Below are positions 32,594 through 44,826 of a DNA stretch of 64,000 nucleotides, in pieces. A program made the position numbers and the translations under genes. The stretch covers positions 6,696,001 to 6,760,000 of the forward strand of contig JBHGNT010000005.1 in assembly GCA_043228905.1 (NCBI GenBank). The letters run 5' to 3'. The stretch is from Azolla caroliniana (taxonomy: Eukaryota > Plantae > Polypodiophyta). The notes below the pieces were generated by a model. The model did not search any database. It saw only the letters and a list, made by a program, of their open reading frames with translations, and was not told the DNA's origin. Within the stretch, counting starts at the first letter, position 1. The number at the start of each line of letters is the position of its first letter.

Positions 32594-32644
32594 TGTTGAG
32601 AGAGCAAGCTCAACATGATCTGGATCGGCTAAATATGCCAAGAG

Positions 32645-33072
32645 TGTTACCCGTTACTTTGGGTGAACACCTTCGATAGATCTGCGACTATCGGTATTCA
32701 AGGGCATGGTACGTGAAGGCTCGTAACAGAGACGTCGAGAGAGAGAGACAGGGCTCAGAGAGAAAACACTAGCGGGGTCTTGATAGACGTGGCGGCGTTG
32801 AACTCATCGGTATGGATCAAAGCACAGACTCATGGAGCAAAATGGCACAAATAAGATCTATTAATATGACAGAAAAAGATTACATAACACGGCCTATGGC
32901 CGGTGACCTTACAAGTTTATCTAGTTACGATGACCTAAGCTAGTGCTTCCGCCTATAGTTTAATTCTCCCTCTCTCTAAGGTACTGGTACTCGTTTAAAT
33001 AACTTTTTCCCCTAATACACAGCCGAGCCGTCGGTGGCTTCCTAATTTTACATTTCTGTTCTCTGGACAACA
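32645..33072 (-). repeat. Gypsy 3' LTR
   Basis: Direct repeat of 42695-43150; minus-strand TATTTAAA followed by a GA-rich tract. Confidence 0.95.
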
Positions 33073-33074
33073 CC

Positions 33075-33117
33075 TGGCACGCCCGTGGGACAGGACCTTG
33101 TCCGTCGAACCCACGAC
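33075..33117 (+). promoter_or_regulatory. Inverted tRNA-Arg PBS (TGGCACGCCCGTGGGAC) plus a T-arm-complementary box, at the position of the PPT
   Basis: 2 nt from the LTR end; complementary to the 3' end of plant tRNA-Arg(UCU) as recalled (GUCCCACYGGGCGUGCCA); no purine tract here on the coding strand. Confidence 0.8.
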
Positions 33118-33170
33118 TTACAAAATACTAACAATATTACAAAAATTGCCTTTTAGGCGTGATCCTCGTT

Positions 33171-36100
33171 TCATTCCTCTTTTAAGATGTCGAGGATGCT
33201 TTCGGGGTCCGGGGTGGTGGCAGGGTGGTCTGGTTGGACTGTCGGTGCGGGGGGTTGAGTTTGGTCCGGGGGTGGCATATCTTCTCGGACGTCCGCCTCA
33301 GGTGCGGCCGATTCTTCTGGTGGGGGTGTGGGTTCGTGGGCGCTAACCTCTACTTCGATAGGATCTGGTACCGTGTGGGCGTCCATGGGATGTCTGTTGG
33401 CCGGGACAAGGGTCTCCAGTGCCGTGTCCGTGATCTCTTTGCTGGAAGGTTCTTCCTTCTGCTCTGTGGCCGTTGGAGGGCTGGTGGGGATGGCTGCGAG
33501 TCGTTCTCGTTCGAAGGTTTCTGCTTCTAGGCGAAACAACATCTGACCGTCATTGAAGTCCTCCATTATTTGCTCGATTGCCGCGGTGTGAGATTTTGCC
33601 AAGGACTCGTAATCCTCAGTTAAATCTCCTTCCATCGGTTCTCGGCATTGGCGCGTAAAATATGCAATTCGGCAGCTGGGGCTGCCCATTCGTCTCCTGC
33701 GCGACTTAATGTTTCCTCGACCTTTTTGGTAAGGTGTTGGCGCTATTTCTCGATCAGTATTCTGATGCGTGTCTCATCCATGCCAGGTTGTGCTCGGATG
33801 GCTGCTAATTCCTGTTTTAAGCCGTCGACCTCGGCATGAATCTTCTATGTTCTTAGCTCATAGATGGCCTGAGTGTTCTTTGCATCCGCGGTTACGAGTT
33901 GGAGAGCCTGCTCGTAACGCTTGGTGAGTTCTTCGGTGGCTTGCTCCTGTTCTTTTTGACACGTGGCCCGGATTTGTTCCCGTTCGACGATTCTCTCTTC
34001 TTGTAGGGTGAAGTAGGAATCCGATAATGCGTCTTTTTGCTCCGAAAGTAGCTTGCATTTGATGACAAACTCGTCAGCCATTTTTAAGGGTCGTACGCTG
34101 ACTCTGCAGCTCGGCATTCTCCGCGATCATCCTCTCCTCCCATTGGCGATTTCTTTCCTCCTGCCGCTGGTTCCAGTCTTTTGCATTGTCGAGCGCGGCC
34201 TGTAGGTCTAGAACCTCCTTCTCTTTCTTCACCACTGTGGCTGCGTATTCCTCCAGCTTGCTTTTGAGTTCGGCTTCCTTGCCCGCGGCTTGCACTTGTA
34301 CCCGGCCCAGTGCTTTGTTCTGCTCGTGTATCCTTTGGTCGGCCTGGGCTCTCATCTCGGCCATCTGCTTGGAAGCTTCTTCTTTTAGGCGAGCCATCGC
34401 CTCTTGATGCCGTTGTTCGTGTCTCTCGGTTCGCCGTTCTTCTTCTTTAAGCTCCACACGGTAATCCCGGAGCGGGGGTTCTGTCTGGGTTGCCACCTCC
34501 TTGGGTGCACGAGGTGGTGGTATCTTGGTCTTCTCCATGGGCGTGGGCGCCTCGGTTGTTGTGCAGGCATCGACCATTTGTAACGAGTCTGTTTGTGTAC
34601 TGGCATGTACCGTTAGCATTGAGTCGGTGATGGTGCTTGCATCCATCATTGTTATGCGTGGAGGCGCTGGGAGGGTCTCGGTGATCGTTACCGGAAGGCT
34701 CAAGAGTTGTTGTTCCGGCCGGTTTTGCTCCCAGGCTGCCAGCTTCTGGTTCGCAGCGTGCCATAGTTTTGTAGCCATCTTAGCCTGTTTTTGGGTTATT
34801 TTTATCTTTCGGGCCATGTCTTTGGCTGCCCGCGTAGTGCGATCCAGGTCCCGATATGCCTCGATAAGGGCCGTGTTTAACTCGGGAACCTCCATGAGGA
34901 GAGCGGCCTGTTTTGCCTGCTTCTTCCTCCCGATTTTTTGTAAAGCCCTGTCCTCCTGGGGCTCAATTTCACCTATTAGCGCGCATTGAATCATTTTTGT
35001 TTCGGCGTGCTCTTCCGCCATTCGAGCGGCTGCCACGACTTGGGCTCTGGCGAGGAAGTTGACCAGCTCGAATGACGTACCGAGGCGTAGGAGCGCACTA
35101 AATTCGTAAGCCTCCGCGGGGAGGTCCTTATACCCGAGGACTTCATCCTCCGAGATCTGCATTGTTTGCCCATGCTCGATCGTGCCCTGGTTCAGCGATG
35201 CCTCCTCAGGGGTGATGGCCAGGTTGCTCTATCTGACCACTAAGGCTTGCTCCTGTTGTGGCTCTTTCTGTTCTTCCGAGGACTCACGGTTGAGTCGTCT
35301 TCTCTTGCTTGGCTGTGTTTGGGGTTCCGGGGCCGGTAGTGTCGTTTCCTCCGCCTGCTTCCTTTTCTGGGGTCGTGGTGGTGCCGCCTGCTGTGTGTTG
35401 GGGTGTGGGATAGGTCCTGGGGACGTTACCGAGGGGCGCGACGTTGGGTGTCGAATGGTGACGTCATCGGCTGTGTTGTCTTCCGCAGCTACCTCCTCCC
35501 ATTCTTGGCAGGTCTCAGAAACTGCCCGTTTTTGTTGGGGTTGGGTGGGTGGTGGTGCAGATGCGGGTTTTTGGTCGGCGGCAGGAGATGAAGGCGATGT
35601 GGGCTCCTCCCATGCTTCGTGGCTGATGGAAACGAATTTCTCTCTCTGCCTTCGTGGTGGTGGTGGGGACGTGAGTGTGCGAGGGGAAGGAAGAGAAGAG
35701 GGTGGGTATAGAACCATCAAAAAGTGGGTAAGAACAGACAACATCTTCTTACCGGACTGAAATGAAGCTAAGGTGGCGCAGAGTCCCTCACCTATGATGA
35801 TTCCCCAATCAATTCTGTTTCCTTCATACGCACTGATGATGATGGCTACCTTGTTCTGCGGCATACTCGTTGGGTTCGTATTTACGAACGCATACTCCAT
35901 TAATATACGAGCAATCTCCCCGAAAGCTTTGTTGGGACCGCCATACGTGCGATATGCCTTCCCTGAGGCTGAGTACTCACCGAAATACGCCTTCATCTTT
36001 GATGCCGGGGGTATGTCGACCTCATGGTCCCCTCCCCGTTGTAGGTCCAAAACAGCCCGAAGCACGTTGTTGGTGATGGCTTCGGGACTTATACGTTTAG

Positions 36101-36479
36101 CCATAGTTTGGGCATCTGGGTGCGCGGGGGCATCGATGATCTTCAGGTAACTGCCCATTCCTCGTTCCTGGAGCCAGGCGCGGGTTTCTATTGAGGCGGT
36201 AAGAGGCATGTTGGAGATGGAGACGGGGTTCGACTGTGTGGAAGCGTGAAAAAGAGTGATGAGGCGAGGGCGAGACACAGGAGGAACAACAGGCAGGGGA
36301 AGTCCAGCAGAGGGGTTATGAGAGCGAAAGAGAGGTTGAGAGCAAGAGCGTTTAGCGTGGTGAGGGCGAGACGAGGTTTCTGAGCTTGACAACGATGGAG
36401 ATGGGGAGCGATAATGGTCTGTGCTGCGTTTTGGAAACGGTTTTAGTAACTTACTCCTAGGGTTTTGTGCCTGAAGCAA
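33171..36479 (-). CDS. Gypsy 3' extra ORF (~1000 aa ancestral, now disrupted): globular N-domain, Pro-rich linker, long coiled coil
   Basis: ORFs 35229-36479 and 34074-35162 are in frame across a single TAG; coding continues through frameshifts into 33845-34117 and 33171-33689. Confidence 0.75.
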
Positions 36480-36726
36480 ATCCTGAAGATTCTAAGTCGT
36501 GGGTGCCATAATAAGTGACTAGCACCACGTGTCCTGAAGGTGAGTGGGGTGCTTCTAGTGCTTTGCATGTGCTTAAATAGGTACTAAATGAGTGGTGGTG
36601 AGGGGTGCTCCTAAAATTGTGGGTGCCTAGGTGGGTGGTGTAGGTGTAGCTAATCAGTGGCTAAACTATGGTTAATCCTACCTACTACTACTTTTATTAA
36701 TTTCAAGAAGGTGGGTGAGTTCTTAT

Positions 36727-39700
36727 TCAGGGGGACACGTGGCGTCCTCCGTGGTGGTCTCCCGAAACTCGTTTGTGCCGTGTGGCTTGGTAAACGGGTT
36801 GGGTGGTGTAGTCCCTCGATATGGTCGAAGTCAGAAACCATTGGCCCAGCTTTTGACAGTGTCGCCGGCGAGTGTGCCGAGCTGGAACGTCCCGTTGAAC
36901 TCGTCGATAATCCAGAATGGACCGGTCCACCGAAATCTTAATTTTCCCGGCATTGACCCGAGTCCTGTTTGAAACAGAAGAACTGGTTTGCTGATGGTGA
37001 GCTCCTTCTCTAGCCCGTGTCGATGTCGATCCACGAAAGCCTTGCGTTGCCATTGTCGTTGCCGTTGTTCGAGTGGGCCATACTCTCTATCCTATCTTCG
37101 CTGAGTTCGAGGAGTTGTTCCAGCCAGGATTGCTCGGATTGGGCCTCGGGGAGCCGTGCTTTGACTTGAACTCGGAGGCTCGGGACTTGGAACTCGACGG
37201 GCATTACGTCTTCTAACCCGAACGCCATTCGAAAGGGGGTTGATTGGATGCTTGTTTTGAAAGTCATACGATACGCCCACATCGTGCTCTGGAGTTTGTC
37301 ATCCCAATCGGTCCTGTTTTCATTGACGATCTTCTTCAGTATGGTTTGGAGGATTTTATTGGTCGATTCCGCCAAGCCGTTCGCCTGCGGGTAGTATGGT
37401 GTGCTTTTCTTGTGCACCACCGCGTAGTGGTGTGTAAGCTCACGTATTATATGATTGATGAAGTGCCCACCTTGGTCACTAACGAGCTCGATTGGGCATC
37501 CGTAACGGCACCAGAGGTGCTCGTACACGAATTTAGTCGTGAATGCCGCCGTGTTATCTCGGAGTGCCTTAGCCTCGACCCATTTGGTGCAGTAATCCGT
37601 GGCAACGATAATATACCTATTCCCTGTTCGGGCCGCGGGTGGTTTGAAAGGGCCTACAAAATCCAAACCCCATTTTTGAATGGGTCCAACTGAAGAATCG
37701 GCTGGTGTGGCATCCGTGACTATTCCATTGGTTGCCCCAATCGTTGGCACAAATTGCACTGCCAGCAAAACTCGTGAGCGTCTTTCTTCGTTGTCGGCCA
37801 CCACAATCCACTTTGCCAAACTTTTCTTGCCGTAGAATCCCCGGCGTAGTGCCCCCCAACTACTCCTTGGTGGGCTTCCTGAAGAACGGCGTTCTTCTCG
37901 AATTGCCGAATCGCTTGGCGCCATATGCCGTCCGAGCCTTTCTGGTAGAGAATGTCTGAGACGAGGCAAAAATTCCGGCTACGCATTGCTAGGCGTTTTC
38001 TCGTGTCAAGGGTCATGTGCTCGGGAGGTACACCGGTGGTGAGAAAATGGGTCATCTCCGTGATCCATTCATCTCCGTTATCGTCTGGTATCGTCGTCAG
38101 GTTAAATAGGCTGGCGTCCGGTAGCTCGTCGTACGTTGTTTTCGCCGGTTCTCCTGACTCAAGATGGCTCAAGTAGTCGGCGACGGCATGTTGTACCCCG
38201 GGTCGATGTTGTACCCCGGCAAAAATTCCGGCTACGCACTGCTAGGCGTTTTCTCGTGTCAAGGGTCATGTGCTCGGGAGGTACACCGGTGGTGAGAAAA
38301 TGGGTCATCTCCGTGATCCATTCATCTCCGTTATCGTCTGGTATCGTCGTCAGGTTAAATAGGCTGGCGTCCGGTAGCTCGTCGTACGTTGTTTTCACCG
38401 GTTCTCCTGACTCAAGATGGCTCAAGTAGTCGGCGACGGCATGTTGTACCCCGGGTCGATGTTGTACCCCGGCAAAAATTCCGGCTACGCACTGCTAGGC
38501 GTTTTCTCGTGTCAAGGGTCATGTGCTCGGGAGGTACACCGGTGGTGAGAAAATGGGTCATCTCCGTGATCCATTCATCTCCGTTATCGTCTGGTATCGT
38601 CGTCAGGTTAAATAGGCTGGCGTCCGGTAGCTCGTCGTACGTTGTTTTCGCCGGTTCTCCTGACTCAAGATGGCTCAAGTAGTCGGCGACGGCATGTTGT
38701 ACCCCGGGTCGATGTTGAATCTGGAAATCAAACTCTTGTAGTAGGAGCATCCACCGAGCCAACCGTCCGGTAAGGCCTTGCTTATTGACCAAATAAAGAA
38801 GGGCCGAGTGATCCACGTGAAAGGTAAATTTTCGGCCCAAGAGGTAATGCCGAAATTTATTGATGCTATAAATCATACCGAGGGCCTCCCGCTCGGTGGT
38901 GGAGTAATTCTTTTCCGCGGTCGAGAGCCGTCGGCTAGCGTAGTACACGGGCCTATACCAATTCGGGGGTGTGCATTGCATCAGGGCACTTCCGATGGCG
39001 ATGTCCGAAGCATCTACGAAGACATGAAACAGTTCGGACCAAACCGGAGACTGGACCACCGGGGCATGTGACAACATTCGTTTCAGGGTCTGATAGGCCG
39101 TGTCCTCAATTGACGTCCATTGGAAAGGAAGGCAATGGACTGCCGCGTGTAAGGGTGTCGCGAAATCGGCCAGGTGTCGTATCATTTGGCTCTGCCACCG
39201 GATTTGTCCCAAAAAACAGCTTAGTGCCTTAGCGTTCGAGGGTGCGGTGGCATTCAGGATTGCCTTTACTTTATCCGGGTCCATAGCGATGCCTTCTTGA
39301 CTGACAATGTGGCTGAGAAGGTTGCCGTTGGTGACTAAGAACGCACATTTCGCCGGGTTTAAACTCAATCGAGCTTGGCGACATCGGCCCAGGCAGAGTC
39401 GTAACTGGGTCATGTGTTCTTGTCGATGGCCATACACGGTGAAATCGTCGAGAAAGACTTGCATGAACGTCGGGATGTAGTCATGAAAGATTTCGGTGAT
39501 GATGCGCTGGAACGTAGCCGACGCCGTTTTTAGACCGAACATCATAACTTCTGCTACAAAAACACCCCATTCCGTGACGAAAGCGGTTTTCTCCTGATCC
39601 TCCGGGTGCATTCTTATCTGGTTATAACCGCTGAACCCGTCGAGGAAACTGTAGCATTGGTGGCCGGCTACCGTGTCGAGGACCCTATCCGTGAATGGGA

Positions 39701-41099
39701 GAGGGAAACCGTCGGTGACTGTTGCGGCGTTAAGCTTCCGATAGTCGACGCAGACGCGGATTTTTCCGTTCTTCTTTGGGACCACTACGATCGGGCTCAA
39801 CCATGTAGCCCGTTTAACAGGGCGAATGAAGCCCACTCGGAGTAGTTTGTCAATTTCCTCTTTGACTTTAGCGGCATAGTTGGGGTTCATCCTGTAGCGC
39901 CTCTGCTGAACTGGCCGAGTGTCGAGTAAGATGTGAATTTGATGTCGGTAGTATTCAGGATCCAGCCCCTTCATATCGGTGTAAGACCAAGCGAAAACAT
40001 CCTGGTAGCCGGTGAGTAATTTTACGAGGCATGCTCGTTCTCCGGTTGGTAGATTATTGGCAATTTGTACCGTACGGGGATTCTCGTCCGAACCGAGGTT
40101 TATTGTTTCCAGGGTTGATGCTTTCACTCGTTGTGAAATGGCGAGTTCGCGTTCGAAAGCCTCCCGAGCATGACGTAGCTCGGCAACCGTGGTTGCATCT
40201 GGTTCCTCCTGGGGTGGTGACTCCTCCGTGACTTCCTCGTCTTTAGATGGCTCGATGGTTGGTAAGGCATTGATTTCGAAGAGAGGGATGATCGTGGGAT
40301 GATCATCTAGGAAGTCATCGACCTCCTCATCGGCCAACCCGCCGAGCATATGGACCCCTTCCGCGTATAACGGCGAAGTGTTGAGGGCGACGGGCACTCG
40401 TTCTTCAATGATAATTCGGACTTTTGTCTTTCCTCTTCGGAACGAGATCATGTTGCGTTGCCAATGTTGCTTGATATTCATTGTACGCAACCATGGTCGA
40501 CCTAGTAAAATTGGGTAGGCGCCTTGTGTCTCCAGTCTTAGCACGACGGCCGAGATCGTGAACATGTGGCCTCCGAGTGTGAAGTCGAGATGGCGGATTA
40601 AACCAATGGGGCGAACTGAGTGGGTGTCGGCCATCCGAAGCCAAAAGGGGCATGGTTCCCATTGATTCAGGCCGAGGTTGAGACACGTTGACTCGCTAAT
40701 AACGTTTACGCCGGATCCGTCGTCGATGATGCATCCGTGCAGGTCTTGTCCCTTAATGATGATTCGCACGGCTGGGTTCTGAGAATCCATGAGTGGTGGA
40801 TTGGTTCCTGCTTCGGTGAGGTGTACCGGTGGCGTCACGGCCTTAGTATTGGCCTGGAGTGCCGCCAGGGTGTCCCGAAATCTCGGCATGAGTGGTAGCA
40901 GTTTATGTAGGGGCAGCGAGATGTGGGAGTTGGTAAGAACATCCCATAGCTGGTCGTCCTCCGACGACGTGGATGGTGCCGAGGTTTGTGGTACTTCCCT
41001 GGGCCCATCCCTCATGTCAGTTTGCATGCGTACGGCATTATTTTTATTGGTTGTGTCGACCCATTCCTTTGTTGCCTGACGTACGTCATCCTGGATTTG
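36727..41099 (-). CDS. Gypsy pol (PR, RT, RNase H, integrase), disrupted
   Basis: IIDDGSGVN (PR), CVDYRKLN and FLDD (RT), VDASD and YSTTERE (RH), HHCC, DFVGP..SDQG..AES (INT), WTGPF. Confidence 0.95.
37965..38717. repeat. 253-bp tandem triplication inside pol
   Basis: ggcaaaaattccggct at 37965, 38218 and 38471; only two substitutions noticed among the copies. Confidence 0.95.
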
Positions 41100-42503
41100 T
41101 CACTGAGTAGTCTGCGCTTTACTCCGGGTAGTGACCGTTTGAACATCGGCCATGATACTGTTCACCGCGGGTGCCTTGCCACAATTCGTTGTCGGACATT
41201 GCGTGGCGTAGTGGCTTGGTTGATTACATTTAAAACATGTCACATTGGTTGAGCTGCTGGTGTCCGCTCTGTCTGTGTGTGGAAGCTGTTGTTGTTGATT
41301 CTCGGTCTCGTTTGGTGGTGGGTTGTTCCGAGGTGCGTTGGAGTTGCGTTGATCATTTTGAGGAGCGTCCCGTTGGCGGTTGTCATTAGGTCTTCTATTG
41401 TTGCGTGTGTTGCGGTCGCCGTTTCGCCGATCAATGCGTGAGTTCCTTTGGTCATACCGGTCATCGCGATCGTCATCATATCGAGCATAATCGTCGTGCC
41501 AGTCATCGCAATAATGATCACGGCGGTTATCACGTCGATAGTCGTCGTCTCGGCGCCGTCGATACGGGGATCGCAGTTGCTCGTTATCCTGGTCTCGATA
41601 GATATATCGCTCGTCCTGCCGAGAGTATGTATTTCGTGGCTCGATCTGGCGGACCGGTGCCGCCGTTGTGCGGTTCAGCATATTATATTCGCACTGCTCT
41701 ACCGTGTGAGCTCGAGACTGACAGATCAGACACTGTGGTCGGTGGGGACATTCGAGGGCCAGGTGCCCTAATCCTGAACACGCAGTGCATTGGAGGGCTT
41801 GGCGAAAGCGATTGTCCTCTTGGGGAAGAGCGTTTTGCAAGGATGTCATCGAGAAGGCCGTGTCGTGCTGGTTCCGATCGAGGGTGAGAACGTGCGTTAT
41901 GACTTGTTCGATAGTATGGTTGGCGAAATTTGTAAGTGCCAGAGTCGTTCGTAGAGGCTCTCGTAAACTGGATAGGAAAGTGTCCGGTATATGTTGTGCC
42001 GAGACATCATTGGCCACTTGTCTGTAGAGATCCTGGAACCGGATTGTGAACTGCGCGACCATTTCGTGCGGTTCCTGGCATATAGAGAAGAATTGCCGGA
42101 GCAGTTCCCTTTTAGGCACCTCGCGATGAAAAAGTTCAAGGAACTTTGTGCGCACGATTTGGAAAGTGGTGGCCTCTCCTATTTCGAGGCGAGAGTACCA
42201 TCGTGCGGCCGGTCCATCGAGGGAGAGTGTGAACTCGGCAATCTTCGAGGCATCGATTTCGGCCGGCGTGAGGCGGTGTGTGGAGTGGTTAGCCTGCCAC
42301 GTGGATATGAAGGCACGGACATGTGACTCCACGTCTGGTCCGTCGGTGTATCGTGGGTATGGGTACGACATGATGTCGTATTGTGGGTCTTCTGGTAGCA
42401 CCGGAAAAGGGTTTAGTTCCGGTTGATTGACCTCCGGAGGGCTCGACGGGGGTTCTTGTGGTGAATCAACTCGCGATCGAGTGTCCAGTGGCGAGGATTG
42501 CAC
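41100..42503 (-). CDS. Gypsy gag
   Basis: Retrotransposon-gag core (SLDGPAARWY..QEPHE.VAQF..RF) and three CCHC knuckles; separated from pol by one in-frame TGA. Confidence 0.9.
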   Translation of the reverse strand: MQSSPLDTRSRVDSPQEPPSSPPEVNQPELNPFPVLPEDPQYDIMSYPYPRYTDGPDVESHVRAFISTWQANHSTHRLTPAEIDASKIAEFTLSLDGPAARWYSRLEIGEATTFQIVRTKFLELFHREVPKRELLRQFFSICQEPHEMVAQFTIRFQDLYRQVANDVSAQHIPDTFLSSLREPLRTTLALTNFANHTIEQVITHVLTLDRNQHDTAFSMTSLQNALPQEDNRFRQALQCTACSGLGHLALECPHRPQCLICQSRAHTVEQCEYNMLNRTTAAPVRQIEPRNTYSRQDERYIYRDQDNEQLRSPYRRRRDDDYRRDNRRDHYCDDWHDDYARYDDDRDDRYDQRNSRIDRRNGDRNTRNNRRPNDNRQRDAPQNDQRNSNAPRNNPPPNETENQQQQLPHTDRADTSSSTNVTCFKCNQPSHYATQCPTTNCGKAPAVNSIMADVQTVTTRSKAQTTQ

Positions 42504-42676
42504 TGGACAAGCCTTTGATTGATTAGGAAAGGATTGGTCAGTGACCGCCGAGTCGGAAGTTCCTTCGACTAGCTCAGGGCGTCGGGCGGGTGGCCGAGAC
42601 CTCGTGGTGCGAGAGGGCGCCGTAACGGCGGCTGGTGGTTACCTTCAACGAAGTTCGCTGTGCACTCACAACTGTA

Positions 42677-42689
42677 ACCGGGCGTGCCA
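42677..42689 (-). promoter_or_regulatory. Canonical-position tRNA-Arg PBS (TGGCACGCCCGGT)
   Basis: 5 nt downstream of the 5' LTR on the coding strand. Confidence 0.85.
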
Positions 42690-42694
42690 AATTG

Positions 42695-43150
42695 TGTTAC
42701 CCGTTCCTTTGGGTGAACACCTTCAATAGATCTGCGACTATCGGTATTCAAGGGCGTGGTACGTGAAGGCTCGTAACAGAGACGTCGAGAGAGAGACAGA
42801 GCTCAAAGAGAAAACACTAGCGGGGTCTTGATAGACGTGGCGGCGTTGAACTCATCGGTATGGATCAAAGCACAGACTCATGGAGCAAAATGGCACAAAT
42901 CAGATCTATTAATATGACAGAAAAAGATTACATAACACGGCCTGTGGCTGGTGACCTTACAAGTTTATCTAGTTACAATGGCCTAAGCTAGTGCTTCCGC
43001 CTATAGTTTTCTTCTCCCTCTCTCTGAGGTACTGGTCCTCGTTTAAATAACTTTTTCCCCTAATACACAACCGAGCCGTCGGTGGCCCGTGATACTCGGA
43101 CTCGGCGTTTGCTAATTTCCTAATTTTACATTTCTGTCCTCTGGACAACA
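42695..43150 (-). repeat. Gypsy 5' LTR
   Basis: Direct repeat of 32645-33072. Confidence 0.95.
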
Positions 43151-44826
43151 AAGAGCCGGATCGGTGTTTGGAACGAAGCCAAGTCAGTGTTTGGTAAGGT
43201 GAGCTGGAGCCATGTGCGAACTGGTAGGTCATTGGAGGCCTACACTCCTAGTCTAGTACGTAGTTATGGTTCTAGTAGTTAGTGTCAATAACTCGGTACA
43301 AGCATTGACTTACTTGTCATTACTTCTATCAGTCCTTTTAAGGACTTATATAATAGTGCCCACTGAGCACATTGTATATACAGAGTATTGAGTTTATTTT
43401 GAAATAGAGTTTATGTTCTGCTCTCTCTGTCACTCCCGCGTATTGTGTATTCTCAAGCTTCCATTGAACCTTCATTTTTGTCTTTATGTTGCTATTCGGC
43501 TGAGCCGGTTGTGTCTACACTTCTACACATAACTTTTACATGGTATCAGAGCGCGGGGGTTATAACATCCTCTGATGCCGACAAGACCTTTCAACACATA
43601 CCAAGACCTAACACCCAGTAAGAACAGACAAGAAGAGAAATGGATAGAGGAATGTCTAGCTCGCTTCTGATGGAGAAGCTCGATAGAAGCAACTACGCAT
43701 CTTGGTTGTATAAGATGCACCAATACTTGCTTGGACATGGATATTGGAGTTATGTCGATAGACCGGCTTGGGAACAAGCGACAAGCAAGGTAATGTACTG
43801 CTTTGCGTCCAGTGTTAGTGATTAGCTACTTAGCCACATCCAGGACAAAGATGCCAAAGGAAGCGTGGACAAACTTGAAAAGGGTTTTTGCTACAAGCAC
43901 CACGGCCCAGAAGCTGCAACTTAGACAAGAGTTGAGCAATGTCCGGTAGAAAGACATGTCAGTGGCCGATTATACAACCCAGATCAAGGAGATTTGTGAC
44001 TCCCTTGCCTCCATCAATGTGACCGTCGAGGAGGACGAAATGGTGCAGGTCTGTCTCAGGGGCTTGGCATTGAAGTTTGGAGCATTCTGAACGGCGGTTT
44101 GCACGAGGGAGAATACGCCTTCGTTTTTTGACTTACAGTCAAAGCTCCTTGTAGAGGAGAACCATGCGGGTGTATCGACGAGTACGCACACCGACAACAA
44201 GTTGGTCTGCACAGAGGAAGATAGGTCCCATGGTCGTGGTGGACGAGGTGGGTCGGCACCCAACGGAGGTGGCCGATAGGAGAAAAACCGAAGGCATAAT
44301 CAAAATGTTAACAACAGTTCTAGACCCTCCGGAAATAAGGGAGTCAAGGTGGCGCCGAAAACCGGCAAGCAAAGGCCGAAATGGAATGTCGGTCATGTGG
44401 TCGGAAGGGCCACAGAGAGAGCGAATGCTGGAAGAAGAGCTCTGATTTGAACAAACCCGGATCAAGTAGGGGTGACACTGATAGGCATCAAAGATCGCAC
44501 TACGCCGAAGGCTCGGGAGGAGCCAAAAATGGATCGGGCTCAACCTTTGTGATGAAGCACAAGGCTAATTCGATGAAGACAAGCACCTCAAAACCGAACG
44601 AGGTATGGTATGATGATTCCGGAGAGTCGAACCATATGACGAGCCACGAGGAGTGGTTCTCATATTTGGAGAAACCGGAACAACGGGGGGGTCATCGAAA
44701 CCGGTGACGACACCCCACATACTATCGAACAAGTCGGTGAAGTTCCCTTAAACCACGTCGAACAAAAAGGGAAGTTCATGAACGTCTTGCACATCGCAAC
44801 AATCATGAAGAACCTGGTGTCGGTGG

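Follow-up and report, generated by a model that had tools for sequence, protein, structure and literature searches.

The window analysed here, a stretch of 64,000 nucleotides from the 523-Mb genome of Azolla caroliniana, contains a 10.5-kb Ty3/gypsy LTR retrotransposon that lies on the minus strand at 32645-43150, within a copia remnant, and is flanked by AAGAG target-site duplications (32640-32644 and 43151-43155). Along its coding strand the element is comprised of a 456-bp 5' LTR (42695-43150), an ordinary primer-binding site (PBS) of 13 nt complementary to positions 64-76 of tRNA-Arg(UCU) (42677-42689), gag with Pfam matches to Retrotrans_gag and a zinc knuckle (41100-42638), pol with the protease region, reverse transcriptase (RT), RNase H and integrase (37010-41099), an extra sense ORF that is in three pieces in this copy (33171-36491), and a 3' LTR of 428 bp with TG...CA ends (32645-33072). 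The two LTRs are identical at 410 of 426 aligned bases (96.2%), ~30 bp of the 5' LTR being absent from the 3' LTR. The pol gene is interrupted at 37965-38723 by a triplication, three tandem 253-bp copies that are 98-99% alike. In the related element L174 the extra 3' ORF is intact, with a single reading frame of 1194 aa (L174:7515-11099; 3.6 kb). Its product (~1200 aa) gave no match in Pfam and has just five unnamed homologues; coiled-coil-like and proline-rich parts can be discerned in it. A PBS of a neighbouring copia-like element, which from its motif we take to be of the methionine-tRNA type, is located at 43542-43553, 400 bp beyond the 5' LTR of the Ty3/gypsy element.

The domain order, gag followed by RT, RNase H and integrase, is that of Ty3/gypsy elements, as found by Pfam in the window ORFs and in three related polyproteins, and the direct TG...CA LTRs, the AAGAG duplication and the tRNA PBS after the 5' LTR are further features of this group. 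Among solved structures the RT-RNase H region is best matched by the Ty3 RT (E 4e-67). No chromodomain, the criterion for chromoviruses, was detected after the integrase at E <= 0.05 in three full polyproteins, and the additional archaeal-type RNase H of the Tat elements (Ogre, Retand, TatI-III) is absent, RT_RNaseH alone being matched in three polyproteins. In contrast to Phygy and Selgy, which are short and filled by the polyprotein (with NCGN targets in Phygy), the elements described here are ~10 kb long, with a 3.6-kb extra ORF and varied 5-bp duplications. The lack of a chromodomain and of an extra RNase H and the presence of an extra 3' ORF are shared with Athila (OTA), and by these features the clade is Athila-like, the references in our tree carrying no Athila label. 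Judging from part of the survey PMC6317226, plant non-chromovirus elements (Athila/OTA, Phygy, Selgy) have in common with it the missing chromodomain, a tRNA-Arg primer, an extra 3' ORF, a length of ~10 kb and a 5-bp duplication. In an RT-RNase H tree of 39 rows (midpoint root; one row left out as too short) the clade groups with liverwort and metagenome elements and is sister to unlabelled angiosperm elements; RT identity is 41-43% to the angiosperm relatives and 49-50% to elements of the liverwort Riccia, the closest named relatives.

Between the extra ORF and the 3' LTR lies a tRNA-like site. The order on the minus strand is tRNA-Arg(UCU) positions 49-58 (33105-33114), a 13-nt insert with a 4-bp stem and a 3-nt loop (33092-33104), positions 59-76 including CCA without one C of 65/66 (33075-33091), a 2-nt GG spacer (33073-33074) and the LTR. 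The coding strand of the site carries the tRNA's own sequence, and the plus strand reads as an inverted PBS. The insertion point is precisely the 58/59 boundary of the tRNA, next to A58, the m1A at which RT usually stops. The preliminary description had recognized a bipartite tRNA match split by a 13-nt hairpin with one base missing, and had predicted the T-arm and acceptor strand of the host tRNA-Arg(UCU). Both points are borne out by the genome: the minus strand reads as described, and ARAGORN called five host genes with the predicted T-arm and acceptor strand among 12 pattern matches. The split pattern has 701 exact genome matches versus none for a reversed control, so the match is not due to chance.

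The site stands 2 nt before the 3' LTR, where the polypurine tract (PPT) belongs. Its relatives were compared through 23 subfamily representatives, derived from 81 distinct sites in the examined loci that fell into 26 clusters, with three truncated singletons left out; eight of the 23 had been selected by a pattern requiring the tRNA match. The spacing between CCA and LTR is 2 nt in all 23, partly by search design. The 3' LTR has no adjoining PPT, either in the window or in the representatives: the 15 nt preceding the LTR are 47-60% purine in all 23, with no purine run abutting it. Purine runs of 11-17 nt do occur at least 377 nt upstream of the LTR; they lie too far away to define the LTR end in the usual way, and may have a helper role.

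The preliminary description had staked its docking site on conservation of the TTCGA motif of the T-loop, which fails within the window's own family. TTCGA is present in 16 of the 23 representatives (8/15 among those not selected by a pattern demanding it). In the window's family 177 copies, chosen regardless of this position, were listed, and by hand count of the first 100 the block reads TCCGA in 73, TCCAA in 8, TCTGA in 7, TTCGA in 6 (the window included), TCCGG in 3 and otherwise in 3; among 30 BLAST-picked copies four have TTCGA. The difference is at 33108 (tRNA position 55), which is T on the window's coding strand and C in most copies of its family. TTCGA is about as frequent there as the other deamination-type variants TCTGA and TCCAA, and since the family mostly reads TCCGA, the perfect loop of the window probably reflects a copy-level C-to-T change. 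With the common variant TCCGA, the antisense strand can still form a pair of the G-U type with tRNA position 55. In four public runs (three organism labels and one leaf metagenome), contigs cover 33070-33105 in numbers far greater than the flanks, and each of these runs commonly shows the C variant at 33108, contigs recording presence only.

Among 21 metagenome contigs of at least 4.5 kb (79 fetched) the site was found in six; most of the others stop short of the 3' end of the element, and three are distant relatives. It was not found in four distant metagenome relatives (RT 53-54%), whose contigs may not reach the 3' LTR, and the split pattern has no match in the viral contigs scanned. Tracing of 30 sites upstream yielded 12 complete elements with a PBS, ten of which have perfect 5-bp duplications and LTR pairs that are 98.8-100% alike. 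A 2.5-kb element without detectable gag-pol (G000:C2:12742700-12745500; L309, L310) retains a PBS for tRNA-Arg(UCG) together with the UCU 3' site, which indicates that non-autonomous members conserve it. The site is conserved and probably functional.

The 3' site is independent of the tRNA used at the 5' end. A PBS for tRNA-Arg(UCU) was found in 11 of 20 upstream stretches, namely the 11 where the end of the 5' LTR could be located. In contrast, 11 of the 12 complete elements have a PBS for tRNA-Arg(UCG), yet keep the UCU 3' site. The 17 rows with the site are united in one clade of the RT-RNase H tree (100/100), with the UCG-PBS group nested inside the UCU group (100/97): the 5' primer has switched and the 3' site is unchanged. 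Retention of the UCU site in the UCG-PBS families shows that it is neither a built-in primer for their own PBS nor a by-product. The second conclusion agrees with the preliminary description, which had rejected a simple strong-stop origin; besides its persistence next to another minus-strand tRNA, a normal 3' site is found in none of the 35 perfect tRNA copies discussed below.

The first conclusion bears on a reading that the preliminary description had left standing beside docking, in which the genomic RNA would contain a tRNA mimic or built-in minus-strand primer, acting through a T-arm fold or by pairing with its own 5' PBS. The site is indeed complementary to its own PBS over 10-11 nt in the window's family, and GTGGG and CCCAC can pair in the centroid fold of the 48-mer. 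Pairing with the own PBS is ruled out by the 11 of 12 complete elements whose UCG-type PBS is unable to pair with the site. As to the fold, the would-be T-stem shows no double change, 19 of its 115 cells being unpaired; the T-loop position U55 is C in 73 of the 100 window-family copies; and the 48-mer alone, when checked by folding, is no better than its own shuffles (z = 0.07). This reading is largely refuted and we regard it as scarcely credible.

Of the two pairings for which the preliminary description had suggested a covariation check, the T-stem has thus none, whereas the insert stem does covary over the 23 subfamilies, as GGAC/GTCC, GTAC/GTAC and GTGC/GCAC. Two stem pairs are responsible (UA 14/GC 7 and GC 12/AU 9), with 16 double-change cells and a score of 0.214 versus 0.094 for shuffled and at most 0.097 for slid alignments, a signal that amounts to two pairs and a few events. 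Substitutions in the tRNA-matching blocks have a polarity as well. Over tRNA positions 51-76, 24 transitions (G>A, T>C) retain a wobble pair between the tRNA and the antisense strand and two (C>T) break one, alongside 12 transversions, three of them at A58. This tally is biased: the site-finding rule left G67-69 freer than the C positions, eight representatives came from the pattern that requires the match, singletons include post-insertion decay, and the subfamilies share ancestry; in block 51-58, which the rule did not constrain, the ratio is 9 to 0. Decay within one family (30 copies) is symmetric, 6 to 6 at tRNA-matching positions with four changes at position 55 set aside. The predicted duplex with the tRNA has -52.5 kcal/mol on the antisense strand versus -24.7 on the sense strand, with RNA parameters as a proxy. 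Substitution polarity and stem covariation together speak for tRNA docking to the antisense strand rather than for a mimic fold.

These features also bear on a self-encoded primer, in which the element's own RNA would survive RNase H digestion as a PPT does, its hybrid resembling a tRNA/PBS hybrid cut after CCA, and no second tRNA would be involved. Such a primer would account for the position and 2-nt spacing of the site, both as in a PPT, and would sidestep the problem of a tRNA surviving on DNA; moreover, RNase H already has to cut a tRNA-DNA junction, according to the part of PMC5371799 consulted. A hybrid of the element with itself is perfect by construction, so this model does not explain why 25 nt of tRNA identity have been kept, why the loop-out at 58/59 covaries or why substitutions show wobble polarity. 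We consider it unlikely, also on account of the junction copies described next, which bear the sequence of the tRNA and not that of the element.

The 3' end of the tRNA, CCA included, has 35 perfect copies in the genome, all of which were examined. In 24 the copy is found at a U5 end in PBS orientation (three on partial matches only): ten are normal 5' PBSs regenerated from the tRNA to about position 59, three are chimeras with a 3' site, and others read through to tRNA positions 38, 33, 29, 23 or 21. Six further copies, from three independent events, have the tRNA in sense at the U3 end of a forward LTR, joined through the family's own spacer. The remaining copies are one chimeric U3 junction (L273), one junction of another kind (L311) and three unassigned copies. 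No perfect copy is a normal 3' site restored from the tRNA, and a further check of seven matches found none either.

In the established replication pathway, the 5' end of plus-strand strong-stop DNA becomes the U3 end of the 5' LTR, so that tRNA sequence at this end is the expected trace of a plus-strand primer that was not removed. The event in family B has 57 nt of tRNA in three amplified copies (C2, 12.00-12.02 Mb), one of which leads on to a PBS for tRNA-Arg(UCG), gag-pol and the 3' site of that element. In family G, an element with AATAG duplications has three 5' LTRs in a row (C16, 17.527 Mb), with 18 nt of tRNA at two of the U5-to-U3 junctions; its own site departs from the tRNA at three places. 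In family J, 49 nt of tRNA are present in a 2.5-kb element with a UCG PBS, and the spacer is the same as that of its own site. The own 3' site differs from the fused tRNA piece in all three families, and the PBS in B and J is for the other tRNA. A search for U5-to-U3 junctions with gaps up to 32 nt gave 17 matches, of which two are same-family tandems; both are of the tRNA type and none is of the element type, a comparison of small numbers that again counts against the self-encoded primer. Six more loci were weighed as U3 junctions and left uncounted, L285 because it is of the U5 type and L293, L304, L274, L283 and L291 because no family end could be assigned. The latter five hold perfect or near-perfect 18-nt tRNA pieces beside the G-rich repeat end of a small element, and two of them follow a U5 end.

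In L311 (G000:C21:4842471) a U5 end is joined through tRNA positions 59-76, in sense, to an internal gag-pol position, with the PBS and gag lost; tRNA pieces are therefore not confined to U3, and template switching or end-joining could be behind some of the junctions. This copy fits a model in which the minus-strand site would bind the tRNA only to position RT and RNase H or to guard the end; priming would be left to another RNA fragment, and the junctions would be template switches onto the bound tRNA. Non-priming 3' tRNA contacts are known in Ty3 and Drosophila gypsy (parts of PMC5371799 and PMC1635307); they are on genomic RNA and complementary to the tRNA, whereas the Azolla site has the opposite polarity and places CCA exactly at the priming position. 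The fused tRNA of B, G and J stands ahead of a 5' LTR, and the elements concerned retain both a PBS and their own 3' site, an arrangement that a one-step switch at the 3' site would not yield. We find such a helper role quite unlikely.

The same counts argue against ambisense replication, in which an antisense transcript would also be packaged and the site would serve as its PBS, the tRNA priming on RNA and not on DNA. The polarity of the site suits any antisense strand, and both LTR-internal junctions resemble outward-facing PBSs. Regeneration from the tRNA is nevertheless seen in ten normal 5' PBSs and in no normal 3' site, against at least 701 unregenerated sites, and the long ORFs are all on one strand. 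Ambisense replication is highly improbable.

The reading that we favour, with a probability of roughly 0.8, is that host tRNA-Arg(UCU), as an intact molecule or as a 3' half, would prime plus-strand synthesis at an inverted second tRNA-binding site in the position of the PPT. As envisaged, tRNA-Arg(UCU), or tRNA-Arg(UCG) in the derived subclade, would prime the minus strand at the 5' PBS by the established pathway; tRNA use there is shown by the PBS copies regenerated to position 59. After the first strand transfer RT would copy U3 and the site, and RNase H would clear the RNA, again as established for other elements. The exposed DNA could then pair with tRNA positions 59-76, with one tRNA C bulged, and 49-58, the 13-nt DNA hairpin being looped out, which gives 17 plus up to 10 nt annealed around the hairpin; conservation, covariation and wobble polarity point to this pairing, in line with the selected antisense docking site of ~27 nt put forward in the preliminary description, which made no mention of the PPT position or of plus-strand priming. 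Extension of the CCA end by RT across the 2-nt spacer into U3-R-U5 is suggested by the tRNA-U3 junction copies. RNase H would remove the tRNA and integrase would trim 2 nt, giving the TG...CA ends and 5-bp duplications that are observed. Where removal failed, RT would copy the tRNA up to a modified base and generate junctions like those found. The hairpin and bulge might position RT, protect the hybrid, or stop genomic RNA from trapping PBS-bearing strands. As a counterpoint, RNase H, with its usual acidic residues (present in the window element as read by eye), might cut the tRNA-DNA hybrid before extension, and clean junction events behind the tRNA-primed reading number only three.

It is likely that the whole of this plant Ty3/gypsy clade uses a host tRNA as primer twice, on RNA and again on DNA, with two different tRNA-Arg isoacceptors in some families, that the PPT has been abandoned, and that the looped-out DNA hairpin and fixed one-base bulge constitute a dedicated structure for initiation by a tRNA on DNA.

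Priming of the plus strand by a PPT is given as the rule in PMC5371799. Canonical PPT elements (Ty3 and retroviruses in PMC5371799; the Tf1 group in 10.1101/2022.12.06.519325, both in part) share with the Azolla elements an RNA primer that ends, or here would end, just before U3, as well as TG...CA LTRs and 5-bp duplications; they differ in that the Azolla elements have no purine tract and carry a tRNA-sense sequence ending in CCA, and that the primer would be host-encoded. In the portions consulted of PMC5371799 and PMC1635307, Ty1 and Ty3 tRNA contacts run from the acceptor stem into the T-arm, the Ty1 segments being split by an internal loop (PMC5371799), a second tRNA site is located near the 3' end in Ty3 (PMC5371799) and Drosophila gypsy (PMC1635307), making two PBSs on gypsy RNA (PMC1635307), and both Ty3 and Ty1 keep a PPT (PMC5371799). 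The predicted duplex of the Azolla site resembles the bipartite PBS of Ty1 and Ty3 in the loop-split pairing of acceptor stem and T-arm, except that it forms on the antisense strand. The Ty1, Ty3 and gypsy sites, as characterized in those portions, are tRNA-complementary, on genomic RNA, and serve the minus strand; in contrast, the Azolla site has the opposite polarity, replaces the PPT and can name a tRNA other than that of the PBS. Within the sections consulted, PMC6317226 distinguishes three types of primer, each of them for the minus strand, describes the PPT as general and mentions no inverted tRNA site, three bryophyte names had no match in its examined supplement files (17,418 characters), and PMC7466625 does not mention primer sites. 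Open-access literature yielded no published description of a tRNA site replacing the PPT, Repbase and subscription journals being outside the search. Cer7 of C. elegans has its own tRNA-like primer. Like the self-priming Tf1 and Tcn1, it demonstrates that elements can carry primer-like sequence themselves, there for the minus strand; unlike in these elements, the 3' site of the Azolla clade does not follow the PBS. The arrangement is probably a new variation on LTR-retrotransposon replication, in which a looped bipartite PBS would be placed on the opposite strand, for the other DNA strand.

As a general rule, the plus strand of retroviruses and of LTR elements that use an integrase is taken to be primed at a PPT. 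If the favoured reading is true, RT and RNase H have another way of defining the U3 end, and the clade that would use a host tRNA on a DNA template is a successful and recently amplifying one. Its dependence on host tRNA would be doubled, and likewise its exposure to tRNA fragments. The site provides a short, testable substrate for primer selection and removal by RNase H. Annotation tools that require a PPT can mis-orient or miss such elements.

Long tRNA copies were also noted in aberrant elements, at U5 ends in L264, L279, L281, L284 and L287 and in L155 and L159. They stop at positions 59, 38, 33, 29, 23, 21 or 20 and are a natural record of RT stops at likely modified bases (m1A58, t6A37, D-loop). 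At G000:C3:8086201-8099200 (L134, L135, L272, L273) the LTRs of one family are inverted around the interior of another, with tRNA/element template-switch sequence at both ends; this chimera lies in a tRNA-Phe gene and has a 12-nt duplication. In L271, L272 and L282, 3' sites that contain the missing C are joined in reverse to the LTR U5 end of another family, and these chimeras suggest that a tRNA-sense site is able to trap PBS-bearing strands.
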